From positions 5,702-69,701 of the forward strand of contig JASHOQ010000115.1 of assembly GCA_030041045.1 (NCBI GenBank): 64,000 nucleotides of DNA, given 5' to 3'. The DNA comes from Acidobacteriaceae bacterium. Its GTDB lineage: Bacteria; Acidobacteriota; Terriglobia; Terriglobales; Acidobacteriaceae. Below are positions 7,919 to 59,572 of this stretch, piece by piece. Both the position numbers and the translations under genes were made by a program. Position 1 is the first letter of the stretch. Every line of letters starts with the position of its first letter. Below the pieces are notes generated by a model that saw only the letters and a program-made list of their open reading frames with translations, was not told the origin of the DNA and did not search any database.

Positions 7919-7919
7919 G

Positions 7920-23299: not shown

Positions 23300-23306
23300 A
23301 AGCCCC

Positions 23307-23338
23307 CTGACTCGCTGACTTGCTGACTTGCTACACTC
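23307..23338. repeat. octanucleotide tandem repeat (CTGACTTG)n
   Basis: CTGACTCG CTGACTTG CTGACTTG CTACACTC, immediately upstream of GTG start 23345. An inverse-orientation copy lies at 45621-45638. Confidence 0.6.
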
Positions 23339-23344
23339 AAACGC

Positions 23345-24223
23345 GTGCGCCGGCTCATCGTAAATGCTGACGACTTCGGCCTGACCGCCGGCGTCAACCG
23401 CGCCGTGGCCGAGTTGTCCTCCGCGGGCGTGCTGACCAGCACCACGCTCATGGCCCGCGCCGGCGCAACACGCGAAGCAATCGGAATCGCCCGCGCGAAA
23501 CCCTCTCTCGGCGTCGGCTGCCACGTGGTCCTGGTCGATGGCGCTCCGATCCTTTCCGCGCGCAGAGAGATCCCGCGTCTTGCCCGCCCTGCCGCCTCCG
23601 ATCCCGCAGGCGAACTGCGTCCCGGTCTGCCGGGATTTCTCCGCGCCATCTATCTTGCCCCGGACAAACAGAAGCTCTACGCACAGATCGAAGCCGAGAC
23701 CCGCGCGCAGATCGAATTCCTGCAGATCGCCGGCGTCGCCCTCACGCATATCGACACCCACAAGCACGTGCACATGTTTCCCGGGGTGCTGCGCGCCGTG
23801 CTGCGCGCCGCGCGCGCCCGCGGCCTTCGCGCCGTGCGCAACCCCTTTGAGCCGGCTTGGGCCGTGCGCGCCGCGGGTGCGGGACCATGGCTCCGCGTGG
23901 CGCAGGTCAGCGCGCTACGCTGGCTCGCGCCCGTCTGCCGCGGCATCATCGCCGAAGAAGGCTTCGTCACCACCGACGGTACCCTCGCCGTGGTCGGCAC
24001 CGGCATCCTCGATCGCACCATGGTCCGCCGCCTGCTCACCAACCTTCCCCAAGGCACCTGGGAGCTGGTCACGCACCCCGGCTACAACGACGCCGATCTT
24101 GACCGTGTGCGCACGCGCCTGCGCGCCTCGCGCGACATCGAGCGCGATGCTCTCGAGGCCATCCGCGAGTTTCCTGGCATCGAGCTGATCTCCTATCGCG
24201 ACCTCAACCCGGCAAGCGCTTGA
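23345..24223 (+). CDS. ChbG/HpnK (YdjC) family carbohydrate deacetylase
   Basis: GTG start. MRRLIVNADDFGLTAGVNRAVAEL...THIDTHKHVHMFP, the YdjC-family signature. Confidence 0.85.
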   Translation: MRRLIVNADDFGLTAGVNRAVAELSSAGVLTSTTLMARAGATREAIGIARAKPSLGVGCHVVLVDGAPILSARREIPRLARPAASDPAGELRPGLPGFLRAIYLAPDKQKLYAQIEAETRAQIEFLQIAGVALTHIDTHKHVHMFPGVLRAVLRAARARGLRAVRNPFEPAWAVRAAGAGPWLRVAQVSALRWLAPVCRGIIAEEGFVTTDGTLAVVGTGILDRTMVRRLLTNLPQGTWELVTHPGYNDADLDRVRTRLRASRDIERDALEAIREFPGIELISYRDLNPASA

Positions 24224-24326: not shown

Positions 24327-25478
24327 ATGCGCATCGGCATCACCTGCTATCCCACCTACGGCGGCTCCGGCGTTGTGGCCACGGAGCTCGGCATCGAGCT
24401 TGCGCGCCTCGGCCACGAGATTCACTTCATCTCTTATTCGCAGCCCTTCCGCCTCAGTGGCCGCCTCAACGAGGGCGGAGGCGGCATCTTCTACCACGAG
24501 GTGCCGGTCTCGAATTATCCCCTCTTCGAGTTCCCGCCCTACGATCTGGCGCTGGCCTCGCGCATGGCGGAAGTGGCCGAGTATTATGCGCTCGACCTGC
24601 TGCACGTCCACTACGCCATTCCTCACTCCGTGAGCGCGCTGCTGGCGCGGCAGATGCTCGCTGCCAATGGCCGCCGCCTGCCCTTCGTCACCACCCTGCA
24701 CGGCACTGACATTACGCTCGTCGGCCTCGATCGGAGTTACCTGCCCATCACCCGCTACAGCATCCAGCAGAGTGACGGCGTCACTTGCATTTCCAATTAC
24801 CTCAGGGAAAAAACCATCCAGGATTTCGGCGTGACGCGGCCCATCGAGACCATCACCAACTTCGTCAACTGCGACGTGTACGCGCCTTTTGCCGACGAGG
24901 CGCAGCGCGCGGAAGCGCGGGCGCGTTTCGCCCGCCCCCAAGAGGCGATTCTGATGCACCTTTCGAACTTCCGCCCGGTCAAGCGCGTGGTGGACACGGT
25001 GAAGATCTTCGCAAGTGTTGCCAGGGAGCGGCCCGCGCAATTGGTTCTCATCGGCGATGGGCCCGACCGCTCCGCCGCCGAGTGGCTCGCGCACGATCTT
25101 GGCATCCAGTGCCAGGTGCACTTCCTGGGCAAGCAGGAGCGCGTCAATGAGCTGCTGCCCCTGGCCGATCTGCTGCTCATGCCCAGCGAGCTCGAGTCCT
25201 TTGGCCTGGCCGCGCTCGAAGCCATGGCGTGCAAGGTTCCCTCCATTGCCACGCGCGTGGGCGGCGTGCCCGAGCTCATTGACGACGGCGAGAACGGCTT
25301 GCTCTTTCCCGTGGGCGATGTGGACGCGATGGCCGCAGCCGCGCTCGCGCTGCTGGGCGATCCCGCGCGCCTTCAGGCCATGCGCGATGCCGCGCGCAAG
25401 GCCGCGCAGAAGCGCTTCTGCGCCTCGCTGGTGGTGCCGCAATATGTGCGCTTCTACGAGCAGGTGCTCACGCAGTGA
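24327..25478 (+). CDS. bshA: GT4 glycosyltransferase, BshA-like (N-acetyl-alpha-D-glucosaminyl L-malate synthase-like)
   Basis: MRIGITCYPTYGGSGVVATELG..., LLHVHYAIPH, TTLHGTDITLVG, and C-terminal E..G...LEAMA...P GT-B motif. Assigned from remembered BshA orthologue motifs, not from a search. Confidence 0.7.
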   Translation: MRIGITCYPTYGGSGVVATELGIELARLGHEIHFISYSQPFRLSGRLNEGGGGIFYHEVPVSNYPLFEFPPYDLALASRMAEVAEYYALDLLHVHYAIPHSVSALLARQMLAANGRRLPFVTTLHGTDITLVGLDRSYLPITRYSIQQSDGVTCISNYLREKTIQDFGVTRPIETITNFVNCDVYAPFADEAQRAEARARFARPQEAILMHLSNFRPVKRVVDTVKIFASVARERPAQLVLIGDGPDRSAAEWLAHDLGIQCQVHFLGKQERVNELLPLADLLLMPSELESFGLAALEAMACKVPSIATRVGGVPELIDDGENGLLFPVGDVDAMAAAALALLGDPARLQAMRDAARKAAQKRFCASLVVPQYVRFYEQVLTQ

Positions 25479-25514
25479 TCAGTGTTCAGTGTTCAGGGTT
25501 CAGGGGTCAGGGGT
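25473..25514. repeat. heptamer tandem array, G-rich arm (6 units), overlapping the bshA stop codon
   Basis: CAGTGAT CAGTGTT CAGTGTT CAGGGTT CAGGGGT CAGGGGT. The TGA stop (25476-25478) lies inside unit 1. Confidence 0.85.
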
Positions 25515-25813
25515 CAACAAGCCAGAATGTTGGCTTATGAGGTTGCGCGAAGCGAGCAAATATTTGCACAGGTGGTTGCGCTTGCGCGCCAAGGTTTGCC
25601 TGCACGGTTCCATTGCGCAGAGGGGTTGACCGCTCAGGCCATCCCGAAGTGCGTTCCGGCTGCTGAGAATCGACCCCGCCGAGTGCGCAGGCTGCTCAGA
25701 ATCTCTCGAAGAGACGCGAATTTGCGCTCAAATTGCGCGATTTGACGCGGTTTTCGCAACACTGGACGCATGGTTTGGCGCCAACTCGCCGCCGTGTGTC
25801 CCCTACGAAGCCC

Positions 25814-25876
25814 CATTTCCCTACTCCCTACTCCCTATTCCCTACTCCCTACTCCCTGACCCCTGCTCCCTGAAAT
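25814..25876. repeat. heptamer tandem array, C-rich arm (9 units)
   Basis: CATTTCC CTACTCC CTACTCC CTATTCC CTACTCC CTACTCC CTGACCC CTGCTCC CTGAAAT. Complement-type units of the same family. Confidence 0.85.
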
Positions 25877-26151
25877 CCTGCGCCTGTGCGAAACGATGGC
25901 GGTGTGCGCGCCACTATCCATTCGAAGCGCGGGATGGGCCGATCTCTTCACACCGGTAGCCGGGTAAACGCCGCGAAGGGAAAGGCCCCTGCGCTCGGAA
26001 CGGGCACCTTAAAGCATTTTCTGAGTAGCTATATCCCGAAGACGGAAAGCAGAGTCGACGCGACCAACAGGGAGCGGCGACCTTGCGAAGGAACGAAGAG
26101 GACACAGTAACTCAGAAAATGCCGTAGATAGATAGAAAAGCGCGGCGCGCG

Positions 26152-26877
26152 TCACGCCTGCGGCCGGAAGACCGGCTCGAAGCCCAGCGCGCGCCAGAAG
26201 CGCTCGAGCAGCGCAAGGGTTCCCCGGCTCGTGGCCGGCGTGACGCCTATTTCCATCGCCGCACCGCAAGACTTCTCCAGATCTGCGAGCTCGAGATCGG
26301 ACGGCGAGAGAGCAAGCGCCACGCAGCGATCCGGACGATAAGTGCACGCGGCGAGATCGGCGATAGAAAGCGTTTTGGTGGGTGTGGCGAAGACCGCGTG
26401 CGGCGGAGCCATGCGGTCGAGCAGCCAGAGAATTTCGAGTTTCGATTCGAGCTCGTCGGGCACGCAATCGATGACGAGCTCGGCCGGCCGCACCGCGTCT
26501 TCAATCGACGCGACAAAGGCGACCGGGAAGGTTTCCACGGGATTGGTTTCGACGCGAATGGGTTCGTCGGGATTGAATTCCTCAGGGGCTGAAGCGCGCG
26601 ACGCATCCTGGGTGCGGCTGCCGGCAGTCAGGGACCGGCCCGCACTGCAAGCGGGATCGCTCGCGCCTTCAGCCTTTTTTTCCCGGGCGAGCTCACGGCG
26701 CAGCGCCTCGCGCGCGCGGCGCAGGTTCGAAGGCAGCACATCTTCGAGCAGGACGCGGAAGCCGGCGCGTGCAGCGCGGCGCGCAAGCGAGCGCCCCAGC
26801 CGGCCGGCCCCGATAATGGCCACGGTCAAGGAAGAGCCGGGCGGGCTATCCGATCCGAAATCCGGCGCGGGGGTCAT
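26152..26877 (-). CDS. 3-hydroxyacyl-CoA dehydrogenase-like NAD-binding domain protein
   Basis: Start moved to ATG 26877. VAIIGAGRLGRSLARRAARAGFRVLLEDV Rossmann motif, CVPDELESKLEIL. Low-complexity insert; no C-terminal dimerisation domain seen. Confidence 0.7.
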   Translation of the reverse strand: MTPAPDFGSDSPPGSSLTVAIIGAGRLGRSLARRAARAGFRVLLEDVLPSNLRRAREALRRELAREKKAEGASDPACSAGRSLTAGSRTQDASRASAPEEFNPDEPIRVETNPVETFPVAFVASIEDAVRPAELVIDCVPDELESKLEILWLLDRMAPPHAVFATPTKTLSIADLAACTYRPDRCVALALSPSDLELADLEKSCGAAMEIGVTPATSRGTLALLERFWRALGFEPVFRPQA

Positions 26878-39949: not shown

Positions 39950-40554
39950 TGGCGCGCTCACGCGCTTTTACTTTTTGGACAAGAGCAGTGGGGGGTCTGC
40001 TCCGTGCCCCATCCATTCCACGTTCTTTGTGGAATGGGCGGGAAAGAGCAAACCTGGTTTTTTGCATCAAGACCGCGCAAGCGTTGCTGCTCGCCGTCGC
40101 CATCTGCTTCAGCGTGGGTGCGAGCGACCAAAGCGCGCGCATGGATTACCTGAGCCATCACCTCATGTGCCAGTGCGGCTGCGCGCAGCTCCTGGGCGAG
40201 TGCGACCACGTGGGTTGCCCCGACCGCGACACCGAGCTCGCGGAGCTGAGCGCGGCCGTGGCCGCGGGGAAAAGCGACGAGCAGATTCTCGACGGATTCG
40301 TGTCCAAATATGGCGCGGTGGTGCGCGCCGCGCCCACCACCCACGGGTTCGACCTGGTGGCGTGGATTGCCCCCTTCGCCGTCTTTGCCGCTGCGCTTCT
40401 GGGCACGATTCTGCTTGTCCGCCGCTGGTCGGGCATCTCCGGCATGCAGGCTTCCGCCGCCCCGCCCGAAAGCAATGACCCCGCCGATTGCGAGCGCCGC
40501 GAGCGCATTCGCCGGGAAACGAGTGTTGGCACCGGCGCCGAAGGAGGATTCTGA
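39949..40554 (+). CDS. ccmH: CcmH/NrfF-like cytochrome c biogenesis protein
   Basis: The ATG overlaps the ccmF TGA (TGATG). Cys-rich LMCQCGCAQLLGECDHVGC segment followed by a TM helix. The true start is uncertain. Confidence 0.65.
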   Translation: MARSRAFTFWTRAVGGLLRAPSIPRSLWNGRERANLVFCIKTAQALLLAVAICFSVGASDQSARMDYLSHHLMCQCGCAQLLGECDHVGCPDRDTELAELSAAVAAGKSDEQILDGFVSKYGAVVRAAPTTHGFDLVAWIAPFAVFAAALLGTILLVRRWSGISGMQASAAPPESNDPADCERRERIRRETSVGTGAEGGF

Positions 40555-40557
40555 CCC

Positions 40558-40836
40558 ATGACCGAAACCGAGGGACTGATTGCCGGCATGTTTCTCCTCT
40601 TCGCGCTGGTGGTCTACACCTTCTGGCCGGAAAATGCCTTCGCCAGCCAGAAGGAAAAAACACGTCTCGATTTTCTGCTCGAGCGCAAGGAGCAGCTCTA
40701 CGAGAATCTGCGCGACCTGAACTTCGAGCATCGCGCCGGCAAATATCCTGAAGAAGATTTTCAGATCCAGCGCGCGCTACTCGAGAACGAAACCGCCGAA
40801 CTGCTGGCAGAAATTGACCGGCTGCAGGGCGCGTGA
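40558..40836 (+). CDS. small single-TM protein with CcmI-like N-terminal motif
   Basis: TM LIAGMFLLFALVVYTF, then LRDLNFEHRAGKYPEEDFQIQRALLE. The same motif recurs in the tail of the next gene. Confidence 0.55.
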   Translation: MTETEGLIAGMFLLFALVVYTFWPENAFASQKEKTRLDFLLERKEQLYENLRDLNFEHRAGKYPEEDFQIQRALLENETAELLAEIDRLQGA

Positions 40837-40841
40837 AGAGG

Positions 40842-40918
40842 CAGGGGTCAGGTTTCAGGGATCAGGGATCAGGGATCAGAGGTCAGGGATCAGGGATCAG
40901 AGGTCTGGGATCAGGGTC
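40842..40918. repeat. heptamer tandem array (11 units, G-rich on + strand), single arm
   Basis: CAGGGGT CAGGTTT CAGGGAT x3 CAGAGGT CAGGGAT x2 CAGAGGT CTGGGAT CAGGGTC. Starts 6 nt after stop 40836 and ends 9 nt before ATG 40928. Confidence 0.9.
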
Positions 40919-40927
40919 GAAGCGGAA

Positions 40928-42289
40928 ATGAACGAATCCATAACGAAAAAGGCCAGGATGAAAACGGCACGTGCGCTTGCGGGTTATTTCGCGTTGAGTT
41001 TCTCGTTGTGCGCCGCCCTGGCGCACGCGGCCACGGTGAGCGGTACGGTGACGGACAAGACCACGGGCAAGCCCGCCGCCGGCGACGTGGTGGTGCTGCT
41101 CGACGTGCAGGCGGGCATGAGCGAAGCGGCGCACGCCGCCACCGACGCGCAGGGTCATTACTCCATCAGCGCGCCCGGCGACGGACCCTACCTGGTGCGC
41201 GTCACCCACCAGGGCGCGGGCTACTTCATCGCTGCGCCGCCCGGAGCGGCGTCGAGTCCCGGCGCCGGCGACATCGCCGTCTACGACGTGGCCGCCAAGG
41301 TGAGCGGCGTCTTCATCGAGGCCGACGTGATTGAGGCGGAAACCGACCCCAGCGGCGCGCTCAAAATCGACGAGCGCTACTACGTGCACAACACCAGCTC
41401 GCCGCCGGTCACGCAGTGGAGCCCGAAGTCGTTTTCCATTGTGCTGCCGGCCGATGCGCAGATCACTGACACCGGCGCGCAGCGGCCCAGCGGCCTGCCC
41501 ACCAGCGTGAAGATGGATCCCGACGGGCCCAAGGGCCACTACTCGTTCAATTTTCCCATCCAGCCCGACGACGGCGAAAGAGACACGATGTTCCAGATCG
41601 GTTACACGCTGCCGTACGCGGGCGACAAGTACACTTTCAAGCCGTCGATTACGCTGCCCGCCGACAACTTCGCCGTGTTGCTGCCCAAGTCCATGACCTT
41701 CACGCCCGGAGCGGGGCTGGAGTTCAAGCCCGTGAATGAGGACCCGAGCGTGCAGACATTTCTTTTGAAGAATCCGTCGCCGGGACAGGCGCTGGCCTTC
41801 ACTATCTCCGGCGAGGGCCAGATTCCGCGCCCGGCGCAGGGCGACAACGGCGCACAGGATGCAGGCGGACAAAGCGCCGCCGCGAACGGCCAGCCCGGCG
41901 GCGGCATCGGCGCACCCATTGACACGCCCGACCCGCTGAGCAAATACAAGTGGTGGATTCTGGGCGCGCTGGCGCTGCTGCTCGCCACCGCCGCGGCTTT
42001 CCTTCTGCGCCGGCCCGCGTTTGCCGTGGCGGGCGCGCCTGGATCCGCAGCGGCGGCCCCGTTTGCCCCGCAACCCGCGGCGGGTTCGTTTTCCGTGCAA
42101 CCCTCGGCGGCGGCAAGCGCAGTTGCGGTTGCGCCGGCGGCAAAAAATGCGGCCCTGCTGAACGTACTTAAGGACGAGCTCTTCGACCTTGAAAGCGAAA
42201 AAATTGCCGGCACGCTATCCGCCGCCGACTATGCCGAGCAAAAGGCCGCGCTGGAAGTGGTGCTGAAGCGGGCGTTGAAAAAACAGTGA
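40928..42289 (+). CDS. carboxypeptidase-regulatory-like domain protein with C-terminal TM anchor and CcmI-like tail
   Basis: Start moved to ATG 40928 (track ORF 40814.. reads through the repeat). Signal peptide, ATVSGTVTDKTTGKPAAGDVVVLL, TM WWILGALALLLATAAAFLL, tail LFDLESEKIAGTLSAADYAEQKAALE. Confidence 0.7.
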   Translation: MNESITKKARMKTARALAGYFALSFSLCAALAHAATVSGTVTDKTTGKPAAGDVVVLLDVQAGMSEAAHAATDAQGHYSISAPGDGPYLVRVTHQGAGYFIAAPPGAASSPGAGDIAVYDVAAKVSGVFIEADVIEAETDPSGALKIDERYYVHNTSSPPVTQWSPKSFSIVLPADAQITDTGAQRPSGLPTSVKMDPDGPKGHYSFNFPIQPDDGERDTMFQIGYTLPYAGDKYTFKPSITLPADNFAVLLPKSMTFTPGAGLEFKPVNEDPSVQTFLLKNPSPGQALAFTISGEGQIPRPAQGDNGAQDAGGQSAAANGQPGGGIGAPIDTPDPLSKYKWWILGALALLLATAAAFLLRRPAFAVAGAPGSAAAAPFAPQPAAGSFSVQPSAAASAVAVAPAAKNAALLNVLKDELFDLESEKIAGTLSAADYAEQKAALEVVLKRALKKQ

Positions 42290-42420
42290 TCAGGGGTCAG
42301 GGGTCAGGGGTCAGGGGTCAGCGAACAGTGGTCAGCCTACCGAGAGTCGCTTTCTGATCCCTGATCCCTATTCCCTGCTCTCCATTCCCTGACCCCTGAC
42401 CCCTGAAACCTGACCCCTGG
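42284..42420. repeat. heptamer arrays in inverted arms (8 + 9 units, 15-nt spacer), overlapping a stop codon
   Basis: CAGTGAT (CAGGGGT)x4 CAGCGAA CAGTGGT CAGCCTA / spacer / TGATCCC x2 TATTCCC TGCTCTC CATTCCC TGACCCC x2 TGAAACC TGACCCC. TGA 42287-42289 lies inside unit 1. Confidence 0.9.
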
Positions 42421-42434
42421 TATATCCTTCCGCC

Positions 42435-42926
42435 ATGAAGACCCTATTGCGCACGCTGCTTTATCTCGCGCTGATTGTCTGGCTGGGCGCGGAGATTTTC
42501 TTTCCCGTTGTCGCCGCGGTTGCCTTCACCACGAACGGGATTGATACGCACGCCGCCGGAACCATGGTGGGCCACCTGCTGCACATTCTGCACCGCATGG
42601 CGTTGGTGTCCGGCATCGTGGCGCTGGCTCTGCTGGCGCTGGCGCCCGCGTGGGGCATCTACAAGCCGCGCGCGGTGCTGGCGCCCATGGCGCTGGTGGT
42701 GCTCATGATGGGCTGCACAATTTTCTCCGAGTGGGTCATCATGCCCGCCATGGAGCGCGACCGGCTGGCCGCGAGCAGCGCCATCGACACAGGCGATCAA
42801 AGCGATCCGCTGGCGCAGCACTTCAACAAACTGCATGAGCGCAGCGTCAACCTGCAGATTGCAATCCAGCTCCTCGGCGTTGTCGCCGTTGCACTGTTGG
42901 CGCGCGCGGAGTCGACGCGCGCATGA
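42435..42926 (+). CDS. DUF4149-like integral membrane protein
   Basis: Four TM helices. N-terminus MKTLLRTLLYLALIVWLGAEIFFPVVAA resembles DUF4149 (recollection). Confidence 0.6.
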   Translation: MKTLLRTLLYLALIVWLGAEIFFPVVAAVAFTTNGIDTHAAGTMVGHLLHILHRMALVSGIVALALLALAPAWGIYKPRAVLAPMALVVLMMGCTIFSEWVIMPAMERDRLAASSAIDTGDQSDPLAQHFNKLHERSVNLQIAIQLLGVVAVALLARAESTRA

Positions 42927-42960
42927 GCGGCGAAGGCTTCAGGGGGAGGCGAGTTTCGCC

Positions 42961-43518
42961 ATGAGCCGGCTGATTGTGTGGAATATGCTTTCGCTCGACG
43001 GTTACTTTGAAGGCGCGAAGAGCTGGGATGTGGAGTGGTTTCATCCCTACTTCACCGGCGAGCTCGAGGCCTTCTCGCTCGAGCAGTTGCGCCGCGCCGA
43101 CGCGCTGCTCTTCGGCCGCATCACCTACGAGGGCATGTCCGCCTACTGGCAGAGGGCCGAGGGCGAAGATGCGCGCTACATGAACACGCTGCCCAAGGTC
43201 GTCTTTTCTTCCACGCTGGCGCGCGCCGACTGGGCCAACACGCGCCTGGTGAAGAGCGGCATGGAAGCCGAGGTGAAAGCGCTCAAGCAGCAGGGTGCGC
43301 GCGATCTCTACGTCTTCGGCAGCGGGCAGCTCTGCGCCGACCTGCTTGCAGCCGGCCTGGTGGATGAGGTTCGCCTCTGCATCCAGCCCATCGTAATCGG
43401 CCGCGGCGCCACGCTCTTTGGCCGCGGTCTCCAGCGGATGAACATGACGCTGCTCGAAGCGCGGCCGCTCGCGAACGGCTGCGTGATCCTGCGCTACGAG
43501 CCGCAGGGCAGCGCCTGA
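42961..43518 (+). CDS. dihydrofolate reductase-family (RibD C-terminal domain) protein
   Basis: Start at ATG 42961. MSRLIVWNMLSLDGYFEG...LLFGRITYEGM...DLYVFGSGQL...LVDEVRLCIQPIVIGRG. Confidence 0.85.
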   Translation: MSRLIVWNMLSLDGYFEGAKSWDVEWFHPYFTGELEAFSLEQLRRADALLFGRITYEGMSAYWQRAEGEDARYMNTLPKVVFSSTLARADWANTRLVKSGMEAEVKALKQQGARDLYVFGSGQLCADLLAAGLVDEVRLCIQPIVIGRGATLFGRGLQRMNMTLLEARPLANGCVILRYEPQGSA

Positions 43519-43587
43519 ATGCTCCTGTAAAATCGCCAAAGGCCCCGCCGCGAAGATACCGCGCGCAGGCCATCACACGGAATCTCG

Positions 43588-44676
43588 ATGAAGACAGGCA
43601 TCATCGGCCTGCCGCAGGTGGGAAAGACGTCGCTGTTCAAGATTCTCACCAAGGCCAAACTCGAAGAGCACAGCGGCTACTCGAATCCGCGCGAGGCCCA
43701 CATCGGCATGGCGCGCGTGCCCGACCAGCGGCTGGACAAGCTCTCCGCGCTCTACTCGCCGAAGAAAACCACCTACGCCTCGGTGGAATATGTGGACGTG
43801 GCCGCGATCGGGCAGGAGGCGCTCAAGGAAACGGCGTTCCTCACCAACCTGCGCAACGTGGACGCGCTCATTCACGTGCTGCGCGCTTTTGAGGACGAAT
43901 CGATCCCCCACGTCGGTCCCATCGATCCGCTGCGCGACGTGAAGAACGTCGAATTCGACCTGATGGTGAGCGACCTCACCCAAATCGAGAAGCGCATCGA
44001 GCGCGTGGAAAAAGACATGAAAAAGGCCCGCACCAGCGATCTCGAACGCGAGCAAGCACTGCTGCTGCGCTCGAAAGAAGCGCTCGAGCGGGAGCAGCCG
44101 CTGCGCGAGCTGGAAATGACGCCGGAAGAGAGAAAGCTCATCCGCGGCTTCATGTTTCTTTCGCAAAAGCCCATTCTGTATGCGCTTAACATCAGCGAAA
44201 GCACGGCGCTGGGCGCCGATCTCGAGAGCGCGGCGGCCAAGTTCAAGCTCGACTCCATCGCGCAGCGGCCCAATGCCGCGGTCACGGCCATCTGCGGCAA
44301 GGTGGAAGCGGAGCTGGCGGAAATGGACGACGCCGAAGCGGCGGACTTCCTCTCGAGCTACGGATTGCATGAGAGCGGGCTTGTGCGGCTGATTCGCAAG
44401 AGCTACGAGCTGCTGGGGCTCATCAGCTTTTTTACCGCGGGCGAGGACGAGTGCCGCGCGTGGACGGTGCCGCTGGGCTCGAAGGCGCCGCAGGCCGCGG
44501 GCGCCATCCACACCGATCTCGAGCACCACTTCATCCGCGCGGAAACCATCCGCTGGGATGCGCTGCTTGAAGCCGGCTCCGAGGCCGCGGCCCGCGCCAA
44601 AGGCACGCTGCGCCTGGAGGGCAAGGATTATGTGGTGCAGGACGGCGATGTTTTACACATCAGGCACAGCGGGTGA
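43588..44676 (+). CDS. ychF: redox-regulated ATPase YchF (Obg-family)
   Basis: MKTGIIGLPQVGKTSLF P-loop. C-terminal TGS-like FIRAE...YVVQDGDVLHIR. Confidence 0.95.
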   Translation: MKTGIIGLPQVGKTSLFKILTKAKLEEHSGYSNPREAHIGMARVPDQRLDKLSALYSPKKTTYASVEYVDVAAIGQEALKETAFLTNLRNVDALIHVLRAFEDESIPHVGPIDPLRDVKNVEFDLMVSDLTQIEKRIERVEKDMKKARTSDLEREQALLLRSKEALEREQPLRELEMTPEERKLIRGFMFLSQKPILYALNISESTALGADLESAAAKFKLDSIAQRPNAAVTAICGKVEAELAEMDDAEAADFLSSYGLHESGLVRLIRKSYELLGLISFFTAGEDECRAWTVPLGSKAPQAAGAIHTDLEHHFIRAETIRWDALLEAGSEAAARAKGTLRLEGKDYVVQDGDVLHIRHSG

Positions 44677-44679
44677 AAA

Positions 44680-44876
44680 AGGCAGGGGTCAGGTTTCAGG
44701 GGTCAGGGGTCAGGGAGCAGTGGTCAGTGGTCAGTGATCAGAAATCAGCGATCCGAGATGGAATCAGCTTCTAGCTGTGGTCTGTTCCCTGTTACCTATT
44801 CCCTGCTTTCTTGATGGCTTCTTCCATTGGCTGCTTGCTTTCTGACCACTGACCACTGATCACTGACAACTGATTT
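44680..44876. repeat. composite heptamer array filling the whole ychF-ZIP intergenic region
   Basis: Shares the 22-mer AGGCAGGGGTCAGGTTTCAGGG with 40839-40860. Units CAGGGGT, CAGTGGT, CAGTGAT..., then CAGCTTC TAGCTGT, C-rich CTGTTCC/CTATTCC, then CTGACCA x2 CTGATCA CTGACAA. Confidence 0.9.
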
Positions 44877-44882
44877 CCAACC

Positions 44883-45608
44883 ATGCTCAAGCTCTCCCTT
44901 CTTCTCGGCGCGGTGGCGGCGCTGGCCGATGTGGCCGGCGGGTTAATCCTGGTGCGCGCGCGCGGCGTGGAGCGCTACCTGCGCTACTTTGTCGCCCTGG
45001 GCGCGGGATTCCTGATGGCCACGGCGCTGCTGGAGATGACGCCGGAGAGCCTGCGCATCAGCCCTCAGCTCGCGCCGGTGCTCATCATGGCCGGCTACTG
45101 CGCGGTTCATCTGCTGGAGCACACCATCAACGCGCATTTTCATTTCGGCGAGGAAACGCACGCGGGCGAGTTCGTCTCCCTGCACACCGGCTACTCCGTG
45201 CTCGGCGGCCTGAGCGTGCACGCGCTCTTTGACGGCGTGGCCATCGGCTCCGGATTTGTGGTTTCCGAATGGCTGGGCTGGCTGATCTTTCTCGCCATTT
45301 TGCTGCACAAGATGCCGGAGGGATTCACCATGGCTTCGGTGATGCTGGCGAGCGGGCGCAGCCGCACCACGGCGTTCTACTCGGCGGTGGTGCTGGCCGC
45401 GGCCACGCTGGCCGGCGTGCTTTTGATCGAACTGGTGCCGAGCTGGCTTTCGATCGGCCTGCCGGTCTCGGCCGGCGTGGCCATTTACGTGGCCGCTACC
45501 GATCTGGTGCCCGAGGTGAACCGCGAGCCCGGCATCCGCATGGCGCTGGTGTTTTTCCTGGGCGTGGCTGCGTTCCTGGTTCTGCGGCATGTGTTGCCGG
45601 CGTTGTAA
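44883..45608 (+). CDS. ZIP-family divalent metal transporter (ZupT-like)
   Basis: Eight TM pattern. HLLEHTINAHFHFGEE His-rich loop. HALFDGVAIG and HKMPEGF motifs. Confidence 0.9.
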   Translation: MLKLSLLLGAVAALADVAGGLILVRARGVERYLRYFVALGAGFLMATALLEMTPESLRISPQLAPVLIMAGYCAVHLLEHTINAHFHFGEETHAGEFVSLHTGYSVLGGLSVHALFDGVAIGSGFVVSEWLGWLIFLAILLHKMPEGFTMASVMLASGRSRTTAFYSAVVLAAATLAGVLLIELVPSWLSIGLPVSAGVAIYVAATDLVPEVNREPGIRMALVFFLGVAAFLVLRHVLPAL

Positions 45609-45620
45609 ACGAGCGGGTCG

Positions 45621-45638
45621 GCAAGTTAGCAAGTCAGC
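45621..45638. repeat. octamer repeat (GCAAGTYA)2, inverse orientation of 23307-23338
   Basis: GCAAGTTA GCAAGTCA GC, immediately left of the transposon target duplication. Confidence 0.5.
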
Positions 45639-45647
45639 TCGGTTCAT

Positions 45648-45667
45648 GGTAGTGTCTCAGTTTGAAA
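45648..45667. repeat. left terminal inverted repeat of the transposon
   Basis: GGTAGTGTCTCAGTTTGAAA. Begins GGnnnTG like IS1 ends. Confidence 0.85.
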
Positions 45668-45771
45668 ATGACTCGAAATGGGGATGGCGAAGATATGGCG
45701 CAAAACTTTACTGTTGCCTTTAGAGTTTTTGTCGATAACAATGATGGGACCATCAAAGAATGGCGAAAATG

Positions 45772-46338
45772 CTACCCCAAAGCGTTTAGGACTTTTACCC
45801 CAGCAGGCGGAGAAAACTCGCCAATTTCCTCTGCCATCCCATAAGCAACGGCGTCCGAGCCGGTGAGGTAAACGTCATGGAAACGAAACTGAGTCCACAA
45901 ATCCTCGGGCAACCGAAGGTGAGCGCGCAGGATTTCCTCCATCCTGGCATCATCAATAGCGAGGTTGGCAGCGACGGCTTTCAGTTTGTCAACGCTCGCC
46001 CCATTGGGGGAATTAATGGCCTTGTGGATCATGAAAACAGCATTAGCAGTGGTCTTTCGGGAGTGGGCGCCAAGATAGGCAAGCGTGGCAGCAGAGGCAA
46101 CTTGGCCAGCGTTGTAGAGGACGACTTCTATGGCGAGCTTCTTTAGAGCGTTATAAAGAAAAACGCCGTCGCCGACAAAGCCGCCCCATGACTGAAACAA
46201 GATGTGAACGCGCTTAGTCCCAGCCGCAGATACTGTGGTTAATCCATTTATCAACTTGGCTCCGTTCGCGGCGTTTATATCGCCGCAATATGTCGCCCAG
46301 AGTTCCTCTGCGACGGGCTTCTTGGTTTCTTCTGGCAT
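45772..46338 (-). CDS. stand-alone ClpP-like (S14/Clp-fold) serine peptidase
   Basis: Start moved to ATG 46338. Candidate Ser-His-Asp triad contexts GQVASAATLAYLG, FMIHKA and LTGSDAVAYGMAEEI, in ClpP order. Lies 29 nt downstream of the transposase on the same strand. Confidence 0.7.
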   Translation of the reverse strand: MPEETKKPVAEELWATYCGDINAANGAKLINGLTTVSAAGTKRVHILFQSWGGFVGDGVFLYNALKKLAIEVVLYNAGQVASAATLAYLGAHSRKTTANAVFMIHKAINSPNGASVDKLKAVAANLAIDDARMEEILRAHLRLPEDLWTQFRFHDVYLTGSDAVAYGMAEEIGEFSPPAGVKVLNALG

Positions 46339-46367
46339 AGCGGAAATACTACACCTTTCCTCGGATT

Positions 46368-47201
46368 CTATTGAGCCAAGAATGCTATCTCTTCGTAGCT
46401 CCAAACGTGATCCGAGATGCCCGCAGCCATCGCGGGCGTAATTCTCAAGGTCTTGTGAATCCGAGCGAAGTTGTAGTGGATGAAATGCAGCGTAACCGCA
46501 GCCGCGTGATTTTCCACTTTCTTAGAGAACGCATTGGTTAAGCGTGTGAACCGGCGCATGCTCATCCGCATAGTCAAATTCTGGCGTTCCACAAAAGACG
46601 TACTCGCGTGCTTAGGGTCGGGATCGCCTGCCACGGTTTTCATATCCCAGCCGATGCACTTGGCTGGGCTGTAACGCCGCGTTTCCTCGTCTGTCGGAGC
46701 GCCGTAGATTTTCTGGAGCGTAGCAAAGTCCACATCGGCTCCGAACGCGTTTTCGACCGCTTCCAAATAGGCTTTGTGTCCATCAGTTGTCAGTTGCACC
46801 CGACCCTTCACGCGGCTGGCAACGTCCTGCATAAATTCGTTGGCCCACCATCCATCGCGGCCGCCCACAAGGTAGCTCACACAGAGCTTCGTATCGGCGT
46901 CAATCGCGGTCCAAGTCCAAGTGTCTCCCCATCCTTCCGCCTTGCGGTCGGGGCTGGCGTTCTTAGCCTTTGCCCCAACAAAGCACCAAATTTCGTCACA
47001 CTGGACCCGCTTGCAGCGCACGTCACGCACCGTCGCATCGTGGTATGCGTGTGCGGCGCTCGCCACGTCCAAGAGAAGCTTTGTGACGGTATTGATTGAA
47101 ACGTCCACGATCCGGCTGATGCTCCGAAGGCTAGTACCTTCGACGAGCATTTGGACGATTTGCGCCCGCTTAGCAAGTGGAAGTCTGTTCGTGACAAGCA
47201 T
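46368..47201 (-). CDS. IS1-family transposase (single ORF, ISMhu11-like)
   Basis: N-terminal HTH RAQIVQMLVEGTSLRSISRIVDVSINTV. DDE region QCDEIWCFVG...WTWTAIDADTKL...TTDGHKAY...ERQNLTMRMSMRRFTRLTNAFSKKVENH...HYNFARIH. Confidence 0.85.
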   Translation of the reverse strand: MLVTNRLPLAKRAQIVQMLVEGTSLRSISRIVDVSINTVTKLLLDVASAAHAYHDATVRDVRCKRVQCDEIWCFVGAKAKNASPDRKAEGWGDTWTWTAIDADTKLCVSYLVGGRDGWWANEFMQDVASRVKGRVQLTTDGHKAYLEAVENAFGADVDFATLQKIYGAPTDEETRRYSPAKCIGWDMKTVAGDPDPKHASTSFVERQNLTMRMSMRRFTRLTNAFSKKVENHAAAVTLHFIHYNFARIHKTLRITPAMAAGISDHVWSYEEIAFLAQ

Positions 47202-47315
47202 AATATTCAGTTTGATTCTAAGTGTCAAGCATAAAGTTCACTTTGAGGACTTAGACTCGCTATTACTGAGATATTCTCATCTTTAACTGATACCTTTGGT
47301 GCTTATACTGAGACA

Positions 47316-48596
47316 ATGGGTGAGGGGATGGATATGCCACTCGATTACGAGGACCTGGTCACACGAGCAACCACTGTCTTTCAGCCACGGACGCCGATCA
47401 CAACGCGTGATCTGTTTGCTGGCCGCTGGAATGAGTTGATGGCGGTTGTCGATGCGGTTAATCAGATTGGTCTGCACGCCGTAATCTATGGTGAACGCGG
47501 CGTCGGGAAAACCTCCCTGGCTAATGTTGTGGCTCCGACGGTTTACGCGATGGATGATCCAAGCCCGACTGCGCCCCTCAATCCCAAAGGGCGAGTAATT
47601 GTCAAAACGGTGGCGACTACTTCGGACACTTTTGCTTCGGTGTGGGTCAAACTCTTTAAAGACATTACGCTGATTGATGATCGACCTGTAGCTGGTTTCT
47701 TCCCTGGCCAAAAGGGACGAGTGTCGCTGCTAGAAGCTTACGGTCTAGATTCAAATCTCTCAGTCGATGACATTCGGCGGGTGATTAGCAATATTCCGAA
47801 TTCGGTGTTCATAGTGGATGAGTTCGATCGACTGCAGCCTGCATCAATGAAAGAGTTTACCGACCTGATTAAGACCCTATCCGATTTTTCGGTGAATTCC
47901 ACGGTCGTTTTGGTAGGAGTTTCCGATACCATCGCCAATCTTGTTGCTGACCATGCTTCAATTGTGCGCGCAATTTCACAGGTATTTCTTAGGAGAATGC
48001 TACCGATTGAGTTGAGGAAAATTCTTACGAACGCCGAAGAGAAACTTGGCATCCATTTCACCGATGACGCCGCTCGTCTCATTGTTCATGTTTCGCAGGG
48101 TTTGCCGCACTATACGCACCTGATTGGCCTTCATGCTGTTCGGGTGGCAGCAGACGCGTACACCGCTCCGACCATTTCACGCAAAGATGTATTTGTGGCC
48201 TTGGATCGGGCTACTACTCAGGCTGAGCAAAGCACTAGGAACAGGCATTCAAGGGCTATTCACAGTTCACACAAAGATGCGCTATATCGGCAAATTCTTT
48301 TAGCGTGTGCAGTGGCCGCTGCTCAAGAACAAGACCCACTAGGGTATTTCACCCCGAGCGCAGTGATTGAACCACTTAGTGCGATTCTGGGCCGTCTAGT
48401 AGAGATTGCAACATTTAATTCCCATTTGAGCGCATTCTCTCAACTAGAACGTGGAAATGTGCTAGAACGAGACGGCCAGCCGCGGGCATATCGATTTAGA
48501 TTTCAAGACCCGATGGTGGTTCCATTTACCTTCATGGACGCGGTCGCAAACGGGATTGTCGATGAAGATCACCTTGCGAGACTTTTGAACGACTAG
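47316..48596 (+). CDS. ORC/Cdc6-like AAA+ ATPase with C-terminal winged-helix-like region
   Basis: Walker A IYGERGVGKTSLANVV, Walker B VFIVDEFDRL and sensor-like VLVGVSD. About 150-aa C-terminal helical domain. Confidence 0.8.
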   Translation: MGEGMDMPLDYEDLVTRATTVFQPRTPITTRDLFAGRWNELMAVVDAVNQIGLHAVIYGERGVGKTSLANVVAPTVYAMDDPSPTAPLNPKGRVIVKTVATTSDTFASVWVKLFKDITLIDDRPVAGFFPGQKGRVSLLEAYGLDSNLSVDDIRRVISNIPNSVFIVDEFDRLQPASMKEFTDLIKTLSDFSVNSTVVLVGVSDTIANLVADHASIVRAISQVFLRRMLPIELRKILTNAEEKLGIHFTDDAARLIVHVSQGLPHYTHLIGLHAVRVAADAYTAPTISRKDVFVALDRATTQAEQSTRNRHSRAIHSSHKDALYRQILLACAVAAAQEQDPLGYFTPSAVIEPLSAILGRLVEIATFNSHLSAFSQLERGNVLERDGQPRAYRFRFQDPMVVPFTFMDAVANGIVDEDHLARLLND

Positions 48597-54093: not shown

Positions 54094-54098
54094 AGACA

Positions 54099-54259
54099 GG
54101 GAACAGGGAATAGGGAATAGGGAATAGGGAATAGGGAGTAGGGAATAGGGAGTAGGGAGTAGGGAGTAGAAAAACACGAGCGGGTACGGCTTTGCTGTTC
54201 CCTGTTCCCTGTTCCCTGTTCCCTATTCCCTACTCCCTACTCCCTGCTCCCTGCTCCCT
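54099..54259. repeat. heptamer arrays in inverted arms (10 x GGGARYA, 27-nt loop, 9 x complement) between convergent genes
   Basis: GGGAACA (GGGAATA)x4 GGGAGTA GGGAATA (GGGAGTA)x3 / GAAAAACACGAGCGGGTACGGCTTTGCT / (GTTCCCT)x4 ATTCCCT (ACTCCCT)x2 (GCTCCCT)x2. Confidence 0.9.
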
Positions 54260-54269
54260 ACCGCCCGCC

Positions 54270-57912: not shown

Positions 57913-59526
57913 ATGGGATCTCCGACCGCAGCCGTGCTGGGTGAAGTCGGCCTGCCGGCGCCGGTGCGCGAACTGGCTGCGAAGCGCTGGGACGCGATCG
58001 TCGTGGGCGCGGGCCACAACGGCCTCGCCTGCGCCGCGTATCTGGCGCGCGCGGGCAAGCGCGTGCTGGTGCTCGAGAGCCGCAGGCGCGTGGGCGGCGC
58101 GTGCACGCTGGAAGAGCCGTTCCCCGGCGTCAAGATGTCGCCCTGCGCCTATCTTGCCGGCCTGCTGCATCCGCTGGTCGTGGAAGAGCTCGAGCTCCCG
58201 AGGCGCGGTTTCCATTGGACACCGGCGGTGAATGGGATGTTTGTTCCCTTTCTCGACGGCACCAGCGTGCAGCTCTGGGATGACGCCGAACGCTGCGCTG
58301 CGGAGATTCGCGCCCTATCTCCGCGCGACGTCGACGGCTGGCGCGCCATGAGCGACGTGATCCGCCGCCTGCGCGATGCGATTCGACCGGCAGGCGAACG
58401 CGATCTCCCCCGCGATTTATGGATCGGCGAAGCGCCCACGCGCGACCAGCTCGAAGAACGCATCGGCGGCGACGACGAGGCGCGGGCGCTGCTCTTCGAG
58501 TGGTCGATGGCCGAGTTCGTCGCGCGCTACCTGAGCGACGAGCGCCTGCAGATCGCGTATCTCGGCCAGGGCGTGATCGGCACCAACGCCAGTCCGTTCG
58601 ACGCGGGCACGGCCTCGATCCGTTTCCATCATGCTTCGGGGCGCCTGGGCGGCATGCCCGACATGTGGGGCTACGTGCGCGGCGGCATGGGCATGGTGAG
58701 TTTTTATTTCTGCGATGCCGCGCGCGAGGCCGGCGCTGTGGTGGCTTGCGGGGTTCCGGTCGCGCGGATTCAGCCGGGCGAAGGCCCGCATCCCGCGGAA
58801 GTGCAACTCGAAGGCGGCGAGCGCATCGCAGCGCGTGTCGTGGTTTCCAATGCCGACCCTCGGCGAACGCTCATGATGCTCGGCGACGCAGCGGACACCG
58901 GCTGGCGCGAAAAAGTCGAGCGCGTGCCCATCGAGGGCTGCACGCTAAAGCTCAACGTGCATCTGCGCGCGCTGCCCAATTTCACCGCGCGGCCCGGCGC
59001 GAATGAGCCGCACCACTACGGGCAGATCAACACGCCGCTGACCAAAGAAGAATGGAATGCCGGCTACGCCGCCGCGCGCCGCGGCGAACTGCCCGATCAC
59101 CTCTGGTGCGAGCTCTATTTCCAAAGTGTCCACGACGCGAGCGTGGCGCCCGCGGGCACGCACGCCATGAGCGTCTTTGCGCAGTACGTGCCATACAAGT
59201 TTGCGCGGGGCACGTGGGACGCGCGGCGCGAAGAGGTTCGCGCACTGGCGTTGAAGTCCCTGGCGCGCTTCTGCTCCAACATTCCCGATGCCGTGATCGA
59301 CTGCCAGGTGCTTGGGCCCCCGGATATCGAAGAGAAAGTGGGCCTCAGCGGCGGGCACATCTTCCAGGGCGAGTGCCTGCCGCCCTATATGTGGGCCAAC
59401 CGGCTCGCGCCGCGCACGCCCATGCCGGGCATCTATCTCTGCGGCGCGTGCACCCATCCCGGCGGCAGCGTGATCGGCATCAATGGACGCAACGCGGCGA
59501 TGGCGGTGCTGAAAGACAGCCTTTAG
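57913..59526 (+). CDS. phytoene-desaturase-family NAD(P)/FAD-dependent oxidoreductase (CrtI-like)
   Basis: WDAIVVGAGHNGLACAAYLARAGKRVLVLESRRRVGG dinucleotide fold. C-terminal GIYLCGACTHPGGSV. Confidence 0.85.
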   Translation: MGSPTAAVLGEVGLPAPVRELAAKRWDAIVVGAGHNGLACAAYLARAGKRVLVLESRRRVGGACTLEEPFPGVKMSPCAYLAGLLHPLVVEELELPRRGFHWTPAVNGMFVPFLDGTSVQLWDDAERCAAEIRALSPRDVDGWRAMSDVIRRLRDAIRPAGERDLPRDLWIGEAPTRDQLEERIGGDDEARALLFEWSMAEFVARYLSDERLQIAYLGQGVIGTNASPFDAGTASIRFHHASGRLGGMPDMWGYVRGGMGMVSFYFCDAAREAGAVVACGVPVARIQPGEGPHPAEVQLEGGERIAARVVVSNADPRRTLMMLGDAADTGWREKVERVPIEGCTLKLNVHLRALPNFTARPGANEPHHYGQINTPLTKEEWNAGYAAARRGELPDHLWCELYFQSVHDASVAPAGTHAMSVFAQYVPYKFARGTWDARREEVRALALKSLARFCSNIPDAVIDCQVLGPPDIEEKVGLSGGHIFQGECLPPYMWANRLAPRTPMPGIYLCGACTHPGGSVIGINGRNAAMAVLKDSL

Positions 59527-59572
59527 CTTCTAGCTTGTAGCTGTCGGCTCTCAGCTATCAGCTGTTTGTCGG
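59524..59572. repeat. heptamer array variant (TAGCTTC type, 7 units) starting in the stop codon
   Basis: TAGCTTC TAGCTTG TAGCTGT CGGCTCT CAGCTAT CAGCTGT TTGTCGG. The TAG stop 59524-59526 forms the first 3 nt of unit 1. The same CAGCTTC TAGCTGT units occur at 44765-44778. Confidence 0.75.

Follow-up and report, generated by a model that had tools for sequence, protein, structure and literature searches.

Which kind of sequence fills the gap between two co-directional genes at positions 42284-42420 of a 64,000-nucleotide stretch of Acidobacteriaceae DNA (contig JASHOQ010000115.1, the whole of which is called the window below)? An inspection of the letters alone, called here the sequence-only reading, had described this element as a G-rich and a C-rich array of heptanucleotides facing each other, and had considered it as a terminator, a repetitive or transposable element, or a site of competing structures. 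We found that the element is real, non-random and well delimited. It very probably belongs, as one copy, to a widespread class of heptanucleotide simple-sequence arrays located between genes, and has here the two-arm (inverted) form. The property conserved in this class is the 7-nt step and not the sequence of the unit.

The upstream open reading frame (ORF) ends with AAA AAA CAG TGA, its stop codon occupying 42287-42289, and the next ATG is located at 42435. The gap of 145 nt counted by the sequence-only reading was thus confirmed, as were the 8 G-rich and 9 complementary C-rich heptamers, which make up nearly all of it. The last sense codon and the stop codon of the upstream gene (CAG TGA) lie within unit 1 of the G-rich arm, CAGTGAT, followed by four CAGGGGT, then CAGCGAA, CAGTGGT and CAGCCTA. 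Units are perfect on the gene side and degenerate toward the centre of the element. The C-rich arm reads CTGATCC (twice), CTATTCC, CTGCTCT, CCATTCC, CTGACCC (twice), CTGAAAC, CTGACCC, and a final CTGG after these 9 units; its end is 15 nt from the next start codon. The spacer between the arms, previously given as 15 nt, measures 14 nt. Tandem Repeats Finder (TRF) assigned period 7 to both arms, with 4.6 perfect copies at 42290-42321 and 9.4 copies at 42354-42419, and the best inverted-repeat arms are 35 nt long and 91% complementary. Folded as RNA, the element reaches -80.9 kcal/mol against -48.4 +/- 3.9 kcal/mol for dinucleotide shuffles (z = -8.3), in agreement with the long hairpin proposed before. 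In a read-through transcript the predicted stem comprises about 47 base pairs from the 137 nt of the element. Over the 64 kb we counted 10 lag-7 repeat segments, compared to 0-1 for each of the other lags from 4 to 12 and none in shuffled sequences.

An assembly artefact, which the sequence-only reading had named as a way to be wrong, is excluded. The C-rich arm and the entire 44683-44875 element are base-identical in an independent contig of a metagenome-assembled genome (MAG) that is 99.7% identical to the window (GCA_030048205.1, L001) and in a Logan assembly. The four perfect CAGGGGT units are covered by the window's own assembly only, since short-read contigs break there. The short-read contigs L001 and L002 of the same organism begin or end within arrays (window 42324, 42390 and 44711); such ends indicate that the units are multi-copy genome-wide and that the arrays fragment MAG assemblies.

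On its right the element is bounded by a -10-like box. This box was examined in relatives of the window, namely 80 orthologous loci (Acidobacteriaceae-like MAGs and soil or peat metagenome contigs) obtained by a metagenome scan with YchF at 85-90% protein identity. The motif [TA]GTATYCT-N6-ATG is retained in 24 of the 41 distinct upstream regions of orthologous DUF4149 genes (window 42421-42437; relatives L123-L202), and no Shine-Dalgarno sequence precedes the DUF4149 start. The box may therefore be the promoter of a leaderless DUF4149 mRNA, as its motif and position suggest, in which case the element separates the stop codon of one transcription unit from the next unit's promoter. A promoter and terminator scan of 40000-46000 gave neither a sigma-70 consensus promoter nor a U-tract terminator at the arrays. 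Elsewhere in the window, TACACT-N7-GTG at 23333-23347 is maybe a second case of a leaderless-type -10 box.

The element is not alone in the window. TRF found period-7 arrays at every locus where the same unit family had been announced, and the family itself held for all but 59524-59572, whose unit TAGCTTN is not G-rich; an amine-oxidase-like gene has its TAG stop codon at the start of that array. The association with gene 3' ends held throughout: all six window loci are intergenic and begin 0-6 nt past a stop codon or include it. The gene said to end in the same way at 25473 does so, its array beginning in the CAG TGA of a GT4 glycosyltransferase gene. The two-arm form is not found at every locus. 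Convergent pairs, with the G-arm followed by the C-arm, are present at four of the six loci; a distance of 300 nt separates the arms at 25473 and 25816, and the array at 40842-40916, which begins with the 19-mer discussed below, 5 nt past the stop codon of a 92-aa ORF, is a single arm without complementary partner. The 44683-44875 element begins 6 nt past a stop codon and ends 7 nt before an ATG (fold -92.5 kcal/mol, z = -4.5), and the 54097-54262 element lies between convergent genes, coding for a KdpD-N/Usp protein and a SHOCT-domain protein (fold -116.1 kcal/mol, z = -9.9). Array lengths range from 75 to 400 nt and the unit composition is different at each locus.

The sequence-only reading had also pointed to a 19-mer edge shared between arrays. 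This edge is placed at 42401-42419 (not 42402-42420), and is part of a perfect 34-mer shared between 44683-44716 on the forward strand and 42386-42419 on the reverse strand, 2.3 kb apart. The resulting perfect 34-bp inverted repeat brackets the DUF4149-RibD_C-ychF block (2.26 kb), each copy forming the edge of an array on its gene side; it may allow the block to invert, or be a trace of gene conversion between arrays. At another locus, the G-type and C-type arrays enclose a stretch of 300 nt (25517-25815), and the region 25465-25885 folds at -167 kcal/mol (z = -3.1). The enclosed stretch has no Rfam match and contains short ORFs only, without support; 25400-26200 gave no Rfam match at E<=1 either, and over the full window at gathering threshold Rfam returned tRNA-Val only and no family matching the arrays. 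Coordinates are collected in Table 1.

Table 1. Coordinates of the 42284-42420 element, its sister arrays and its flanking features in the window
Feature	Position	Strand	Evidence and remarks
G-rich (YAG-type) arm	42284..42339	+	sequence, TRF; canonical G-quadruplex motif at 42293
Central spacer, 14 nt, apical loop region of the predicted hairpin	42340..42353	+	sequence, fold
C-rich (CTR-type) arm, pairs with the G-arm	42354..42420	+	TRF, inverted repeat, fold; same in contig L001
34-nt stretch, reverse complement identical to 44683-44716; contains the 19-mer at 42401-42419	42386..42419	-	sequence match
-10-like box (TATATCCT; TATCCT 6 nt before ATG), bounds the element on the right	42421..42428	+	conserved motif; putative promoter
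Upstream gene, CarboxypepD_reg-domain protein, last after ccmF/ccmH	40958..42289	+	Pfam, ORF; start taken as ATG 40958
Downstream gene, DUF4149 membrane protein	42435..42926	+	ORF, Pfam
G-type array in CAG TGA of the GT4 glycosyltransferase gene: CAGTGAT, CAGTGTT x2, CAGGGTT, CAGGGGT x2	25473..25516	+	TRF, Pfam
C-type partner array (CTACTCC type), 300 nt downstream of 25473-25516	25816..25872	+	TRF
Single-arm G-type array, 11 units, CAGGGAT type, every third unit CAGAGGT	40842..40916	+	TRF; no canonical G-quadruplex motif
Two-arm element, ychF / ZIP transporter: G-arm 44683-44753; C-type 44782-44805, 44842-44875	44683..44875	+	TRF, fold
Two-arm element: (YAGGGAR)10, spacer of about 25 nt, (CTRYTCC)9	54097..54262	+	TRF, fold
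Weak relative, unit TAGCTTN: TAGCTTC, TAGCTTG, TAGCTGT, then short complementary CAGCTAT, CAGCTGT	59524..59572	+	TRF

The distribution of such arrays was analyzed at two scales. A scan with CAGGGGTCAGGKKTCAGGG of one genome per GTDB species gave at least 120 loci, which were taken as 8-kb regions. The matches listed belong to Acidobacteriota (Acidobacteriaceae, Granulicella, Terracidiphilus), Chloroflexota, Gemmatimonadota, Planctomycetota, Verrucomicrobiota, Cyanobacteria, Bacteroidota, Actinomycetota and several proteobacterial orders. These cross-phylum loci hold 153 additional period-7 arrays, of many unrelated units, compared to 1-19 arrays for each other period. The unit is also present in 86 viral contigs, where 0.79 Mb contains 288 period-7 arrays (about 1 per 2.75 kb) against 0-36 at other periods. 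In two of them, L206 (IMGVR_UViG_3300028840_003139, 6300-9600) and L231, a heptamer array is found in nearly every intercistronic gap, and the order on the sense strand of L206 is stop codon, (TCAGCAT)2, (TCAGGGG)5-10, (TTCAGCA)4-6, Shine-Dalgarno sequence, ATG. At the smaller scale, the window and its close relatives (470 kb) have 54 period-7 arrays against 0-7 at other periods. Units of relatives that share the same architecture include CAGTTCT, TCGTGAT, CAGCTTT and CAGTGAT. In the window, TRF reported 0% indels in most arrays, so that the 7-nt register is strict. A period that is kept while units differ favours a slippage-type mechanism over a sequence-specific binding site. Among gaps of at least 50 nt, arrays occupy 34 of the 167 co-directional, 6 of the 24 convergent and 5 of the 38 divergent ones. 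The neighbours of the arrays in the window are housekeeping genes, and Pfam annotation of the window genes showed no link between arrays and gene function. A comparison of arrays with canonical terminators, for which they might be substitutes, carries no signal, U-tract terminators being rare in every gap class of the relatives (6 of the 167 co-directional gaps).

Placement follows a strand rule. On the sense strand, G-rich arrays are flush with stop codons and C-rich arrays lie just 5' of starts. In the relatives, arrays of the CTR type (C>G) stand 0-70 nt before a start on the sense strand, or else represent YAG-type arrays for a gene of the opposite strand, and no counter-example was found. 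In the cross-phylum loci the median distance to the neighbouring gene is 14 nt on the 5' side of the G-strand and 85 nt on its 3' side; the 5' distance is 3.5-8 nt where the neighbour is a gene end. The same bias was seen for arrays with other units (G>C 19:8 after stops, C>G 17:5 before starts) and in the Acidobacteriaceae set (18:5 and 10:3, respectively). A TAG stop codon is often the in-phase unit 0, and a TGA stop codon forms unit 1 as CAG TGA T. The C-terminal residue of the upstream protein and its stop codon vary among orthologues (Q-TGA, N/S/K-TAG), which indicates that the array overwrote the gene end. Together, the strand rule and the flush fit to ORF ends suggest that arrays persist or are lost under selection, which would most simply act on the transcript.

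The two arms are coupled. Of the other genomes, among the matches listed, 15 have the complementary arm on the 3' side of the G-arm and none has it on the 5' side. The units of two-arm elements differ by locus and species (CAGGGGT, TAGGGAA, CAGTGGT, CAGTTCN, CAGGTGT, TCGTGRT, CAGTGTA), and each right arm fits its own left arm: native arm pairs reach -1.245 kcal/mol per nt and chimeric pairs -0.745, and no permutation out of 20,000 attained the level of the native pairs. This co-variation means that the arms must interact, through templated copying, selection for pairing, or both.

Between species the arrays turn over, and between close strains they are stable. At the ychF-ZIP junction most of 77 relatives have a stop codon, 2-10 nt and an ATG; about 15 relatives carry arrays there, with about eight different units. 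At the CarboxypepD_reg-DUF4149 junction, most relatives that keep synteny have a two-arm array with varied units. At this same junction a two-arm element of hexamers (GTGTGA / TCACAC) is found in L172, L176 and L199. Local gain, loss and turnover of units at orthologous junctions fit slippage, and the identical 34-nt stretch in two arrays at a distance of 2.3 kb fits ectopic conversion. The sequence-only reading had argued for a common, duplicative origin rather than independent slippage; the sharing is indeed beyond chance, and the choice was a false one given the turnover at junctions. The unit-number polymorphism that it proposed to look for between strains was not seen: the window and L001 show 11 differences over 3.77 kb and none in about 290 nt of array, in this single comparison. 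A phase-variable contingency function, of the simple-sequence-repeat kind, is not supported by the same single comparison of unit number, nor by the housekeeping nature of the neighbouring genes. The stop codon and the first CAG unit are repeatedly joined by a purine-only linker (AGAGG, AAAAGG, AGA, GAAAGA, TAAAGA, AGAGAA), at 40834, 44674 and 54091 of the window as well as in L156, L170, L176, L179, L180, L187, L199 and L202 among the relatives. The tight orthologous junction in L173 reads TAAGGAAAGCAGGGAATG, from which a Shine-Dalgarno-like spacer may have seeded the G-rich arrays. Two short period-8 arrays with a CTGAC/GTCAG core, at 23305-23332 (CTGACTTG three times, just before the GTG at 23345) and at 45617-45638 (GTTAGCAA, GTCAGC; 9 nt past the ZIP stop codon), are possible degenerate relatives of the heptamer arrays.

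Several known repeats resemble these arrays. Repetitive extragenic palindromic (REP) elements, bacterial interspersed mosaic elements (BIME) and REP doublets forming hairpins (REPIN) occur in enterobacteria and pseudomonads; they are extragenic, mostly at 3' ends or in co-directional gaps, and often form inverted doublets that fold as hairpins in mRNA. REP elements stabilise the upstream mRNA, and are conserved imperfect palindromes of 20-40 nt mobilised by REP-associated tyrosine transposases (RAYT). Work of Liang, Rudd and Deutscher from 2015 is said to show that a REP within about 15 nt of a stop codon can lower the expression of the upstream gene. The arrays differ from REP elements in being built of 7-nt units, with only a 19-34-nt stretch common to three arrays and the rest different at each locus, and neither a REP-like consensus nor a RAYT gene is evident in the 64-kb window. 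Heptamer repeats themselves have reportedly been known since 1990, with the short tandemly repeated repetitive (STRR) sequences of heterocystous cyanobacteria attributed to Mazel et al. (units said to be CCCCAGT, TTGGTCA and CAACAGT), and their over-representation in many bacteria is said to have been shown between 2007 and 2015. Likenesses to STRR are the dispersed intergenic tandem heptanucleotides and the similar units (CCCCTGA vs CCCCAGT, CTGACCA vs TGACCAA); the units are nevertheless not identical and the host is not a heterocystous cyanobacterium. To our knowledge, the definition of STRR includes neither an inverted two-arm architecture nor anchoring at stop codons.

The sequence-only reading, which took STRR as the closest analogy, was in the right neighbourhood, but the closest known system is that of the G-rich heptamers of Xanthomonas (GGGAATC) and Nostoc (GGGGAYT) (Rehm et al. 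2015, PMC4692102). About 90% of these repeats are intergenic; they are placed as here relative to stop and start codons, overlaps with stop codons included, and form 70-75 convergent inverted pairs per genome, being rare between divergent genes. They show no functional theme in neighbouring genes, vary in length and sequence between related species, and form G-quadruplexes (G4) in vitro. Most are transcribed, transcripts start or stop there more often than at controls, and the authors assigned no function (Rehm et al. 2015). Our arrays share with them the period of 7, one tract of three or four G per unit, the intergenic location, the anchoring at stop codons and the inverted pairs. They differ by their units, which are GGGGTCA, GGGATCA or GGGARTA (sister arrays GGGATCA, GGGAATA), and by their host, an Acidobacteriaceae-like soil bacterium. 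Compared to the consensus GGGNATC / GGGGA(C/T)T, the GGGG tract is present (GGGGTCA) and the remaining bases differ from both. The same architecture is moreover obtained here from units that are not G-rich, and the capacity to form G4 is often interrupted, so that the quadruplex emphasis of Rehm et al. does not carry over to this clade. Another related family is that of the TAACTGA direct repeats of marine Beggiatoaceae, some Cyanobacteria and Bacteroidetes, patchily distributed AT-rich arrays of 2-6 copies with one indirect repeat in 170 sets (MacGregor 2015, PMC4679880), for which protein binding to a footprint of about 7 nt was proposed. Common points are the CTGA core and the position on the sense strand a few nt before starts, where our C-type arms have CTGACCC, CTGACAA or CTGAGAA; our arrays are GC-rich, longer, and usually accompanied by a complementary arm at the upstream stop codon. 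A literature search on heptamer repeats of Acidobacteria and on exact double units (CAGGGGTCAGGGGT and others) found nothing relevant, in line with the earlier statement that no equivalent was known from this phylum.

How can these observations be explained? Our best account, which we hold at a little short of even confidence, is that the arrays are grown by slippage, that their arms are kept complementary through hairpin formation, and that they are filtered by selection on the transcript; they would act like 3' stem-loops of the REP type. Replication slippage in a 7-nt register would create and remodel arrays. The arms would stay complementary since they meet as a hairpin, whether quasi-palindromes promote intrastrand template switching, selection favours pairing, or both apply, and adjacent arrays would swap sequence by ectopic conversion. 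Arrays persist only outside reading frames and grow until flush with them. At 42284-42420, the element would form the 3' trailer of the ccm/CarboxypepD_reg transcription unit, with a stem whose start is covered by the ribosome at the stop codon and whose end immediately precedes the -10 box of the following gene, which is probably leaderless. Such a stem-loop may act as in REP/BIME, blocking 3'-5' exonucleases and hindering read-through, and its proximity to the stop codon could modulate translation termination of the upstream gene. For this one locus we consider the REP-like role possible, at a confidence clearly below even.

Several points weigh against this account. In L147, L178 and L181 a canonical terminator, with a GC stem and a T-tract, lies between the arms, which there flank a terminator and are not the terminator themselves. 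In the viral contig L206, the post-stop and pre-start arrays are direct repeats of unrelated units, unable to pair, so that the hairpin is not essential to the class, and single arms exist as well (40842) and are common. Slippage was not directly seen, the arrays being identical in the two 99.7%-identical strains. As to a role in the RNA, which we infer, the minimum free energies of sense and antisense strands are equal on average over 16 elements, giving no G.U signature for a functional strand, and the depletion of arrays in divergent gaps (5/38) is mild.

The main rival to a REP-like role is that the arrays are tolerated by-products without role: slippage or template switching biased to period 7 would seed dispensable DNA, the arrays would expand up to the point where purifying selection on coding sequence halts them, only harmless orientations would persist, and the hairpin would do nothing. 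Much of the above agrees with it, namely a period rather than a unit conserved across phyla and viral contigs, sporadic gain at the ancestrally tight ychF-ZIP junction, single arms and arrays in divergent gaps, the missing G.U strand signature, the absence of a link to gene function (window genes; Rehm et al.), and arrays that overwrite the last codon and the stop codon of the upstream gene. We nonetheless find it somewhat unlikely: the CarboxypepD_reg-DUF4149 junction holds its two-arm structure in most relatives while the units change, the strand rule at stops and starts requires selection or a polar process, the arrays are unchanged between 99.7%-identical strains, and viral contigs, which have little dispensable DNA, carry them at high density. 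A different proposal makes the units an array of targets for a protein that binds single-stranded nucleic acid and covers about 7 nt of it (a cold-shock protein, S1 or a CsrA-like protein), or parts of a Rho-related device in which a Rho-refractory G-rich trailer precedes a Rho-loading C-rich stretch. The strict register without indels in most arrays, the TCAG/CTGA core common to TAACTGA and viral-contig arrays, the strand rule (C>G / G>C), which matches the loading preference of Rho, and the rarity of canonical terminators in these genomes would suit it; it is improbable given that the diversity of units even within the same genomes is hard to reconcile with one sequence-specific binder, that paired arms leave neither strand single-stranded, and that no candidate protein was found.

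Structural readings fare less well. According to one of them, the G-rich arm would fold as a G4, in DNA or RNA, and regulate transcription or translation in competition with the hairpin. The arrays at 42293 and 54099 do satisfy the rule G3+N1-7 four times, nearly all canonical G4 motifs of the window fall within arrays, the isolated G-arm is predicted to form a four-tetrad RNA G4 at -37.6 kcal/mol, and related repeats form G4 in vitro (Rehm et al. 2015). The claim that each G-rich arm meets the rule was correct for only two of five, however: the arms at 40842, 44683 and 25473, interrupted by CAGGTTT or CAGAGGT, never give four consecutive G-tracts. The relatives' units CAGTTCT, TCGTGAT, CAGCTTT and CAGTGAT are incapable of G4 and have the same architecture, and when both arms are present the predicted hairpin (-78.9 kcal/mol) is well below the G4, so that G4 regulation is very improbable and competition between the two folds is an unlikely common denominator. 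Placed no better is a classical Rho-independent terminator of the upstream operon, also proposed from the sequence alone, to which we give little chance. A very stable GC-rich stem does follow the last gene of a co-directional cluster and precede a likely promoter, and a similar element separates the convergent genes at 54097-54262; yet no U-tract follows any of the 4 two-arm elements, an apical region of 14-25 nt or more tops a stem whose length far exceeds that of terminator stems, and a comparable element sits within the ancestrally tight ychF-ZIP junction. Arrays are also found in divergent gaps and as single arms, and in some relatives the arms enclose a true U-tract terminator. We are least inclined to accept the MITE-like origin that had been suggested, a miniature inverted-repeat transposable element (MITE) or REPIN spread by a transposase, with the 19-mer as terminal inverted repeat. 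REPINs are likewise inverted hairpin-forming doublets, the 19-mer stands at the gene-proximal edge of three arrays and the exact 34-nt match joins two of them, the unit recurs in many phyla and viral contigs, and short-read assemblies break at arrays as they do at multi-copy repeats. But the 19-mer is found at one end only of each locus, no target-site duplication was seen (the flanks AGAGG, AAAAGG and GTATAT are not duplicated), and length and unit composition vary by locus with no fixed length. Orthologous junctions change gradually and locally, with no discrete insert present or absent, no RAYT-like gene was seen in the 64 kb of the window, and its sole transposase is of the IS1 type, in an unrelated island of low GC content at third codon positions (GC3). 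Further candidates were not supported or gave no match. Stops in three frames as the purpose of the arrays hold for TAG/TGA units and are not general, CAGGGGT having no sense-strand stop; the C-arm as an array of -35 boxes (CTGACC/CTGACA) would be spaced 14, 19 or 21 nt from the -10-like box, not 16-18 nt; a telomerase-like healing of double-strand breaks predicts arms that are always paired, and single arms are common; and the motifs of KOPS (FtsK-orienting polar sequences), Chi and uptake sequences had no match.

Returning to the slippage-grown arrays with a REP-like effect, a broader reading of the same facts is very unlikely in our opinion but would reach further. Arrays would be a gene-boundary punctuation spanning phyla, laid down outward from ORF ends by a polar, sequence-independent process with a 7-nt step, on chromosomes and in phages, and the two-arm form would serve to sense translation. 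A ribosome that terminates would melt the base of the stem and then pass to the adjacent start codon, a coupling across a 'zero-length' hairpin; alternatively, melting would free the C-rich arm as a loading site for Rho. If true, this punctuation would explain why arrays are flush with both ORF ends, G-rich first and C-rich second on both strands, and why they can be inserted into the ancestrally tight ychF-ZIP junction.

The region that carries the element is ordinary chromosome, with the gene order ccmF, ccmH, 92-aa ORF, CarboxypepD_reg, DUF4149, RibD_C, ychF (43588-44676) and ZIP transporter. More distant genes of the window include those for the GT4 glycosyltransferase and the KdpD-N/Usp protein, and uvrB. 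The longest ORF of the CarboxypepD_reg gene, from TTG 40814, crosses the 40842-40916 array, and its true start is likely ATG 40958. The low-GC3 island (45772-48596), directly past the ZIP gene, carries an IS1-type transposase together with a Clp-protease-like ORF and a STAND/AAA NTPase; it is probably of a mobile or defence nature and has no link to the arrays.

The kind of repeat studied here has already been described. What is added is a new phylum and viral contigs, the finding that units can be exchanged without a change of period or polarity, and the co-variation of the arms. In practical terms, the arrays break short-read assemblies and can mislead callers of genes and start codons, as the ORF from TTG 40814 exemplifies. 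Any explanation of the class is constrained by three facts: a period that is kept with a free unit sequence, the anchoring at ORF boundaries together with the strand rule, and the co-variation of the arms. With an array in about one fifth of its longer intergenic gaps, this lineage of soil Acidobacteriaceae would be a good system for functional tests.

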